From a virus (Duplodnaviria; Heunggongvirae; Uroviricota; Caudoviricetes), in IMG/VR virus record IMGVR_UViG_2529292913_000008: DNA of 64,000 bases; one strand, given 5' to 3'. The notes beneath the pieces are model-generated. The model ran no database searches and had not been told where the DNA came from. It saw only the letters and a list, made by a program, of their open reading frames with translations. The stretch's first letter is position 1. Every line of letters begins with the position of its first letter. The position numbers and the translations under genes were made by a program. Shown here piece by piece: positions 7,913 through 9,177 of the stretch.

Positions 7913-9177
7913 GCGAGTTGAGTTATCTGGAAAAATTGCTGGATGGGGTTGAGGTTGAGTGGAAACCCTTGAAGGATGTTTGTGATTTTAAAAATGGATT
8001 TGCATTTAAAAGCAGCTTATTTAAAGAAACTGGGTTACCGATAGTTAGAATCACAAATATAGATGGATTTAATGTTGACTTAGATGAGGTGAAATACTTT
8101 TCACTAAATGATTACAAGGAAGATTTATCCTCCTTTGAGGTATCTATGGGAAATATATTGATTGCAATGTCAGGTGCCACTACAGGAAAAGTGGGAATTT
8201 ATAAAAAAGGAACAAAATGTTATCTTAACCAACGGGTTGGAAAATTCATACCCAAAGAAAATATTCTAAACAATAATTATTTATACCATTTTTTATTGTT
8301 AAATACAGAGACTATTTATATCCTCGCCGGGGGCGGAGCACAACCGAATCTAAGCTCAAATGCATTGATGTCAAAACTACTCATCCCAATTCCCTGCCCG
8401 GATAATCCGGAAAAATCCCTCGCCATCCAGTCTGAAATCGTTCGGATTCTGGACAAATTTACTGCACTTACCGCTGAGCTTACCGCTGAGCTTACCGCTG
8501 AGCTTAACATGCGTAAAAAACAGTACAACTACTATCGCGACCAGTTGCTGAGTTTTAAAGAGGGTGAGGTTGAGTGGAAGGCATTGGGAGAAGTAGCCAA
8601 AATACAACGTGGGGCATCCCCCAGGCCAATTGTTAATTATCTTACTGAACAAGGAAATGGTATCCCATGGATTAAAATCGGAGATACTATCCCCGGCTCT
8701 AAATACATTGACAAAACCTTACAAAAAATAACTGCAGAGGGTGCCCAAAAATCGCGAATCTTGAACCCCGGTGATTTCGTCATTTCTAACTCTATGAGCT
8801 TTGGCAGACCATATATTTTAAGGATAACCGGAGCTATCCATGATGGATGGGCATCAATCAGCAATTTTGGTGAAAAATTAAATGCTGATTATCTGTATCA
8901 CTATCTTTCATCAAAAAAGGTGAAAAATTATTGGGAAAGTAAAATCAATAGCGGGTCGGTCAGTAACTTGAATGCAGATATTATAAAAACATTACCAGTG
9001 CCATTGCCTGATAAACAGAAACAAGAGCGAATATCTGCTCTGCTCGATAAATTCGACACCCTGACCAACTCCATCACCGAAGGTCTCCCGCGTGAAATCG
9101 AGTTGCGCCAGAAACAATACGAGTACTATCGTGACTTACTGTTCAGTTTCCCGAAACCTGAAACTGTCAGTAATTAA
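7909..9177 (+). CDS. hsdS: Type IC specificity subunit HsdS with two divergent target-recognition domains and a three-copy TAEL central repeat
   Basis: 422 aa; N-terminal, central and C-terminal conserved blocks match EcoR124 HsdS, both variable domains differ from my recollection of it; variable regions are AT-rich. Confidence 0.95.
8467..8502 (+). repeat. 3 x 12 bp perfect tandem repeat CTTACCGCTGAG encoding (TAEL)3 in the HsdS central spacer
   Basis: read directly: 8467-8478, 8479-8490, 8491-8502 identical. Confidence 0.95.

Follow-up and report, generated by a model that had tools for sequence, protein, structure and literature searches.

The stretch of DNA analysed here, 64,000 nucleotides long and called the window below, belongs to an E. 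coli P1-like phage-plasmid and carries, all on its plus strand, three genes in the order hsdM-hsdS-hsdR. The first, hsdM (6356-7912), encodes the 518-amino-acid N6-adenine methyltransferase subunit of a type IC restriction-modification system (Pfam N6_Mtase, E=2.5e-121, and HsdM_N). Its 3′ end shares 4 bp with the start of hsdS (7909-9177), the gene for the 422-amino-acid specificity subunit, in which Pfam Methylase_S is matched in two stretches (E=1.3e-44). After a gap of 121 bp comes hsdR (9299-12415), which is intact and from its ATG at 9299 encodes a restriction/translocase subunit of 1038 amino acids with the domains HSDR_N, SWI2_SNF2/ResIII, T1R_D3-like and EcoR124_C in Pfam. Closeness to the EcoR124 subunits was gauged by bit scores, and at about 2.2 bits per residue it is comparable for the two larger genes: HsdM scores 1142 bits over residues 1-518 against the EcoR124 M protein (7bst_D), and HsdR 2288 bits over residues 1-1038 of both proteins against EcoR124I HsdR (2w00), with the next-best non-IC matches of both far weaker.

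HsdS is laid out as an N-terminal conserved segment, a first target-recognition domain (TRD1), a central conserved helix, a second such domain (TRD2) and a distal conserved helix. It aligns end to end with EcoR124 HsdS (7bst_A), the N-terminal, central and distal conserved regions being identical and both TRDs divergent. The variable N-terminal TRD1 (about amino acids 20-157, encoded by 7966-8379) aligns poorly between flanks that are identical, and the central conserved region (about amino acids 158-224; 8380-8580) is near-identical, its sole difference being a 4-residue gap in the EcoR124 protein at the TAEL units discussed below. The variable C-terminal TRD2 (about amino acids 225-378; 8581-9042) is again divergent from EcoR124 HsdS and has similarity to TRD1 of the M. 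jannaschii S subunit 1yf2 (domain E=6.7e-14). The distal conserved region (amino acids 379-422; 9043-9174) is identical to that of EcoR124 and is the antiparallel partner of the central helix. Some other E. coli alleles have only the TRD1 half, or only the other half, of hsdS in common with the window. An antisense ORF at 8377-8652 (91 amino acids, TTG start) is dismissed as spurious, being unsupported and inside a strongly conserved sense-strand gene.

The features expected of a type IC system are present together: the gene order, the similarity of HsdM and HsdR, the HsdS conserved regions around the TRDs and a tetra-amino-acid repeat, which when tandem and in the central conserved region is a described type IC feature (PMC10030836). 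Families of this kind are delimited by similarity in sequence and by the exchange of subunits. Judged from its sequence, the locus is thus a complete, apparently intact member of the EcoR124 family with a new TRD pair, and since hsdM, hsdS and hsdR are all intact the enzyme is predicted to be active; the restriction-modification system of the window should be a working one. No characterised enzyme with these TRDs was found, the PDB sequence matches outside EcoR124 being uncharacterised or distant S subunits. A phage collection yielded partial matches only, to the conserved regions of hsdS, and literature searches that were not strain-specific brought up no survey or methylome dealing with this hsdS allele or its host strains. 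In type IC systems hsdR has its own promoter in the gap between hsdS and hsdR. Here that gap contains a promoter-like site at 9205-9234 (plus strand, 9/12 consensus match), a weak candidate for a separate hsdR promoter, and 3′ of hsdR there is a candidate terminator-like hairpin with a T-run at 12609-12631 (plus strand; a 10-pair stem with 6 GC pairs, then TTTTTATTTT); in the promoter and terminator scan of the region, site counts were no higher than in shuffles.

It is hsdS's central conserved region, between the two variable domains in the alignment to 7bst_A, that holds the repeat. At 8467-8506 on the plus strand the unit CTTACCGCTGAG occurs 3.3 times with a period of 12, 100% matches and no indels, both by Tandem Repeats Finder and in the raw sequence; 8467-8502 is exactly three units, and the period runs on for 4 bases (CTTA). 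The tract is in frame with the hsdS ORF of 422 codons (7909-9177), position 8467 being base 1 of codon 187, and the protein here reads TAEL three times, preceded by L: (L)TAEL x3. In the 64-kb window it is the sole perfect tandem repeat with at least three copies of a unit of 4-30 bp, and the chance expectation for a 12-mer with two exact copies behind it is about 2e-10. The perfect three-copy repeat and the triple TAEL in the HsdS central conserved region, both pointed out in an earlier note made from the letters of the window, are therefore real. A second, weak 12-bp tandem in the interior of hsdR (9613-9635; 1.9 copies, 90% matches, Tandem Repeats Finder score 39) is probably due to chance.

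An AlphaFold2 model of HsdS, built from a 33-sequence alignment and with a mean pLDDT of 81.8, has one continuous helix over amino acids 167-213 (DSSP) with the three TAEL units in mid-helix, and a distal helix over amino acids 369-411; pLDDT falls to 75-78 near the repeats. The distance from LDKF to RxKQY (RQKQY in the distal helix) is 21 amino acids in both helices when there are three units, and with two units it is 17 in the central versus 21 in the distal. The best explanation of this arrangement is that the central helix, packing antiparallel against the distal helix, sets the distance between the TRDs, and that the TAEL tract is its length-setting module, the tract being one unit shorter in sister plasmids of the window.

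Those sister plasmids are very close relatives. The first 25 kb of the window have 99.9% identity to plasmid unnamed6 of ETEC1731 (pig, Belgium) and to pSvP1_F. Apart from changes in IS, about seven point differences are all that separate the window from either of them. The annotation of the ETEC1731 plasmid includes the C1 repressor, terminase subunits, the late promoter activator, tail fibre genes and three tRNA genes, as well as phd/doc, an S24 peptidase, a theta-subunit homologue, a DnaB-type helicase, a Dam-family methylase, a RepB-family initiator and ParA/ParB. Over some 60 kb, local BLAST of the window against it gives, within the collinear blocks, about six substitutions together with a few 1-bp gaps, and eight mismatches inside an inverted IS copy; the remaining differences are IS. 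The window is without an IS91 that the ETEC1731 plasmid has, and without the IS1203 that splits the hsdR of that plasmid (L001 7379-11808), which is therefore predicted to modify and not to restrict; the hsdR of pSvP1_F, like that of the window, is intact. Conversely, an IS element at 3209-4533 of the window, with a 402-amino-acid DDE_Tnp_1 transposase on the minus strand (3218-4426), is missing from the ETEC1731 plasmid as well as from the three-unit IMG/VR contig described below. It disrupts a hypothetical P1-backbone gene, and about 12 bp are shared by the alignments on its two sides, as a target-site duplication would produce. In the 1990s Tyndall and colleagues reportedly described type IC hsd loci with P1-homologous DNA on their flanks.

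Other features of the element bear on its P1-like character or on its IS history. Three tRNA genes, typical of P1-like elements, are on the minus strand at 25964-26039, 28245-28320 and 28323-28398; ARAGORN calls the first tRNA-Met (CAT), its RefSeq homologue in the ETEC1731 plasmid is tRNA-Ile, and the CAT anticodon is presumably lysidine-modified. An 832-amino-acid tail-fibre ORF (60672-63170) runs well past about 61048, the point where an IS3-family element breaks the tail-fibre gene of ETEC1731. An inverted match to that same IS3-family element takes up positions 63084-64000 of the window and is overlapped by the 3′ end of the tail-fibre ORF (63084-63170).

Against this background of near-identity, the difference in hsdS is sharply defined. 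Positions 4534-10118 of the window (5585 bp, comprising hsdM, hsdS and the start of hsdR) align to the ETEC1731 plasmid with 0 mismatches and a single 12-bp gap, and the gap is exactly one repeat unit. Both ETEC1731 and pSvP1_F have two units, and within hsdS their 558 nt upstream of the tract and 670 nt downstream of it show 0 mismatches. In the E. coli and plasmid collections every one of the four full-length matches is of the two-unit form. Two units are also present in the AW1.7 plasmid allele, which is further removed (20 mismatches), and this makes two the parsimoniously ancestral state. Two-unit proteins occur on 91 and 21 contigs (about 112) in a 5.8-billion-cluster protein database, and exact look-up in the same collection, of 15 billion proteins, did not return the three-unit protein. 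There is, however, a second three-unit record, IMGVR_UViG_648276648_000009, whose hsdS is identical over 1269 bp and whose hsdM is identical, with one SNP in hsdR; its backbone is distinct in that the IS at 3209-4533 is absent and there are a few single-base differences elsewhere. When copies of the allele were sought with an anchor-gap-anchor DNA pattern spanning 2-4 units, one viral contig (three units) was recovered, and nothing from the genome-contig or metagenome-contig collections. The allele of the window is most likely a recent expansion from two units to three, a direction that we infer by parsimony with few taxa, and by the same comparison of records the three-unit state appears to be inherited by at least two distinguishable elements. 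Invariance of repeat number across related isolates, which the earlier note had named as the observation that would count against a role for the tract, is not what is seen: the closest relatives have two units and 0 substitutions in hsdS, and four further allele families, described below, also differ by whole units with nothing else changed.

The consequences to be expected from such a difference are known from EcoR124. EcoR124I and EcoR124II have two and three 12-bp TAEL units, respectively, and recognise GAA(N6)RTCG and GAA(N7)RTCG (PMC3874165; PMC12707154 Table 1), in agreement with the rule of two versus three copies for 6 versus 7 nt that the earlier note gave. One unit makes slightly more than one turn of the helix, and moves the TRDs about 0.34 nm further apart with a rotation of about 36 degrees, equal to a one-base-pair offset (PMC3874165). 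With the extra four residues, in EcoR124II, EcoDXXI and EcoPrrI, the target adenines are 8 rather than 7 bp apart (PMC12707154 Table 1). Engineered hybrids with a changed unit number had their spacer shifted as predicted (PMC3874165), and EcoR124II has been converted to EcoR124I by removal of one unit (PMC10644984); the primers used for that deletion match the window exactly, so the unit of the window is the EcoR124II unit at the DNA level. How four added residues are accommodated in the antiparallel coiled coil is acknowledged to be unclear (PMC3874165). The PDB entries 7bst, 7bto, 7btp, 7btq and 7btr have a chain A named ‘EcoR124II specificity protein’, of 404 amino acids and with two TAEL units in the alignment; name and repeat number appear to be mismatched, two units being the EcoR124I-type length.

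The system of the window is like EcoR124I and EcoR124II in gene order, in the full-length match of HsdM and HsdR, in the identity of the HsdS conserved regions and in using the same 12-bp unit, and its allele pair differs, as theirs does, solely by one unit, 2 versus 3. At the level of sequence the EcoR124I/EcoR124II relationship is reproduced. Both TRDs, however, differ from those of EcoR124I, and hence the half-sites should not be GAA and RTCG; moreover EcoR124 is on the conjugative plasmid R124 whereas the present system is on a P1-like phage-plasmid. EcoDXXI and EcoPrrI likewise have three TAEL units in the central region, and their 8-bp adenine spacing is the geometry predicted for the window, though the TRDs of the window are others; the EcoPrrI locus embeds prrC, in contrast to the window, which has none between hsdM, hsdS and hsdR. 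A population-level analogue is the type IC-like NgoAV of natural N. gonorrhoeae strains, where GACN6TGC and GACN7TGC specificities are related to LEAT repeat number in central HsdS together with a downstream frameshift (PMC6789123). There the tetra-amino-acid repeat is LEAT and not TAEL, a frameshift/truncation mechanism is added and the methylomes have been measured, while the window is known from sequence. Phase-variable hsdS genes (phasevarions) likewise vary in specificity or expression through changes in the length of a repeat, but their tracts are long, mono- to penta-nucleotide, and switch the frame on and off at high rates, whereas the tract of the window is 12-bp and in-frame and would alter the length of the protein and not its expression. 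Atack et al. 2019 hypothesise that a simple-sequence tract beside a TAEL-type repeat would likewise change the spacing by length variation, a point they leave to later study (PMC7383803).

Whole-unit variation is far from peculiar to the allele of the window. One chromosomal type IC hsdS allele occurs with 5, 4, 3 and 2 units, the flanks of the tract (320 nt upstream, 600 nt downstream) having 0 mismatches: five units in NT1F10 and nine other records, four in E89, three in 1303 and four others, and two in 1217KP. In E89 and 1217KP (L008 and L010) the same IS3 has replaced hsdM and the first 241 nt of hsdS, beside an mcrB remnant, and the hsdS remnants so marked have 4 and 2 units, respectively. 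As these truncated copies that are without hsdM vary too, the unit number drifts without selection and intrinsic instability of the tract is indicated. Among the 120 best protein homologues there are three more pairs that are identical except for one 4-residue unit: P0005 and P0007 with 3 and 2 units, P0053 and P0068 with 2 and 1 (0 other differences), and the Klebsiella pair P0090 and P0100 with 3 and 2. Of the 1345 E. coli records with the central region, 60 were sampled evenly; about 26 of these have three units and about 29 two, with one of four and one of five, these counts, like part of the chromosomal series, being taken from alignment spans.

The extremes of the series are of some interest in themselves. 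The five-unit TAEL tract is present in the NT1F10 chromosome (NZ_CP075462.1, L005 1566-1625) and also in NC101 (L004 1568-1627), and exceeds the 2-3 units of the characterised enzymes in reviews; such a length might give an N9-type spacer or a promiscuous specificity. In NT1F10 and the nine other five-unit records hsdS and hsdR are intact, the hsdM of NT1F10 being annotated as an N-terminally incomplete pseudogene; the five-unit hsdS of NC101 is interrupted by ISEc45. At the other end, one-unit alleles (LDKFTELTAELTMRKKQY) are common (P0068, P0069, P0071, P0072, P0075 and others, in contrast to P0053 and P0058), P0068 being on 47 contigs, chromosomes included; a one-unit HsdS, if active, might have an N5-type spacer. 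The literature examined yielded no open-access survey of natural TAEL unit number in E. coli. In public enterobacterial genomes a whole-unit series from 1 to 5 is, on these alignments, frequent, and it is new relative to that literature.

The reading that these data very probably call for is that the TAEL tract is the length module of an EcoR124-family HsdS that has recently gained one unit by misalignment, with a predicted new specificity whose spacer is 1 bp longer. Each 12-bp unit would lengthen the central helix by four residues, slightly more than one turn, and misalignment of the perfect repeats would let a two-unit allele gain one unit, either by RecA-independent replication slippage or by unequal sister-strand exchange. 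Efficient RecA-mediated exchange in E. coli usually needs about 20-30 bp of homology. In a two-unit tract, of 28 bp, only 16 bp are common when the copies are out of register, and as this is below that range, slippage or another RecA-independent misalignment is at least as likely as classical crossing-over. Of the unequal crossing-over suggested in the earlier note, the change of unit number it was to bring about is seen between alleles, and the crossing-over itself is one of two routes and not the favoured one. DNA secondary structure was considered as a cause of instability and rejected, the tract folding no better than shuffles (z = -0.63).

With the gain of a unit the half-sites would stay unchanged, the non-specific spacer would grow by 1 bp and the target adenines would lie 8 instead of 7 bp apart; a longer spacer means a different specificity for both methylation and restriction. 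For the enzyme of the window the added base pair is a prediction, extrapolated from other TRD combinations. A switch of specificity would expose unmodified new sites in the cell that makes it. Type IC systems can become established in naive cells and leave them alive, owing to assembly-based restriction alleviation (PMC12707154), and the same alleviation may make such a switch survivable. Once reached, the new state would be heritable, and changes of unit number would be rare mutational steps and not rapid phase variation. Rare, heritable steps are what the data favour, in so far as assembled records can tell: three units in two closely related records, against two units on about 112 contigs, speak for infrequent change and not for a quick toggle.

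The tract might, on the other hand, be a true contingency locus, flipping at about 1e-3 or more per generation, with the assembled three-unit state the majority form of a mixed population. This is unlikely, and equally so the continual sampling of N6-, N7- and N8-type specificities that such a population would engage in, yet several of the observations lend it something: the repeats are perfect in DNA and the same unit recurs across alleles, a single allele exists in four copy-number states with zero flanking substitutions, and variation persists in the IS3-truncated, non-functional copies, as intrinsic instability would have it. Price et al. in 1989 are said to have seen R124/R124-3 switching in culture, which would count on the same side. 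Yet 2-5 units of 12 bp is far below the typical phase-variable simple sequence repeat tract, the two-unit state is fixed on about 112 contigs with three units confined to two closely related backbones, and in the chromosomal series ten genomes have exactly five units and five have exactly three. Since groups of 5-10 genomes hold the same number, copy number tracks lineage and is not scrambled.

Whether the added unit has its effect on specificity in this particular TRD pair can also be doubted. Flexibility of the helix might preserve the old specificity, or the enzyme might be inactive or assemble poorly, so that the unit would be neutral or damaging; four added residues do shift the register of an antiparallel coiled coil, unit number drifts in decayed loci without selection, and the pLDDT of the model dips to 75-78 around the repeats. 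We consider this distinctly improbable, as three units are found in the active EcoR124II, EcoDXXI and EcoPrrI and in about half of the sampled E. coli type IC hsdS genes, make both helices 21 amino acids long, and are accompanied by intact hsdM, hsdS and hsdR in the window and in the second three-unit record, and the spacers of engineered hybrids changed exactly as predicted. The third unit might, finally, be an assembly or sequencing artefact of the source record, and the absence of the exact three-unit protein from the 15-billion-protein collection, together with four full-length matches that are all two-unit, could be taken in that sense. This has hardly any probability left: the identical three-unit gene recurs in an independent IMG/VR contig whose backbone can be told from that of the window, reads of any type would span a 40-bp tract with ease, and whole-unit variation is common in other complete genomes.

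The mechanism is a textbook one, known since 1987-1989, and it opens no new question. The novelty lies solely in the instance, in which a P1-like phage-plasmid carries a new TRD pair and a natural 2/3 pair exists, plus the series of 1-5 units. The 2/3 pair offers a clean natural case in which to see how, with a new combination of TRDs, one turn of the HsdS coiled coil becomes 1 bp of spacer, and the chromosomal 2-3-4-5 series would extend this one-turn-to-1-bp comparison. For the phage-plasmid itself, a one-unit change would separate its restriction-modification specificity from that of near-identical siblings, so that a three-unit host would restrict DNA coming from a two-unit one, and vice versa, with effects on the movement of plasmids and phages among livestock and enterotoxigenic E. 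coli. It is conceivable, as a more speculative extension that is rather less likely to be right than wrong, that the TAEL tract is a low-rate diversity generator used by P1-like phage-plasmids and by chromosomal type IC loci across Enterobacteriaceae, with sub-lineages stepping between 1 and 5 units. If so, sub-lineages would gain mutually restricting specificities, the spacers possibly ranging from N5 to N9, the intact alleles with five units and with one would encode active enzymes beyond the range characterised to date, and specificity switching by phage-plasmids would shape which sibling plasmids and phages enter a cell.
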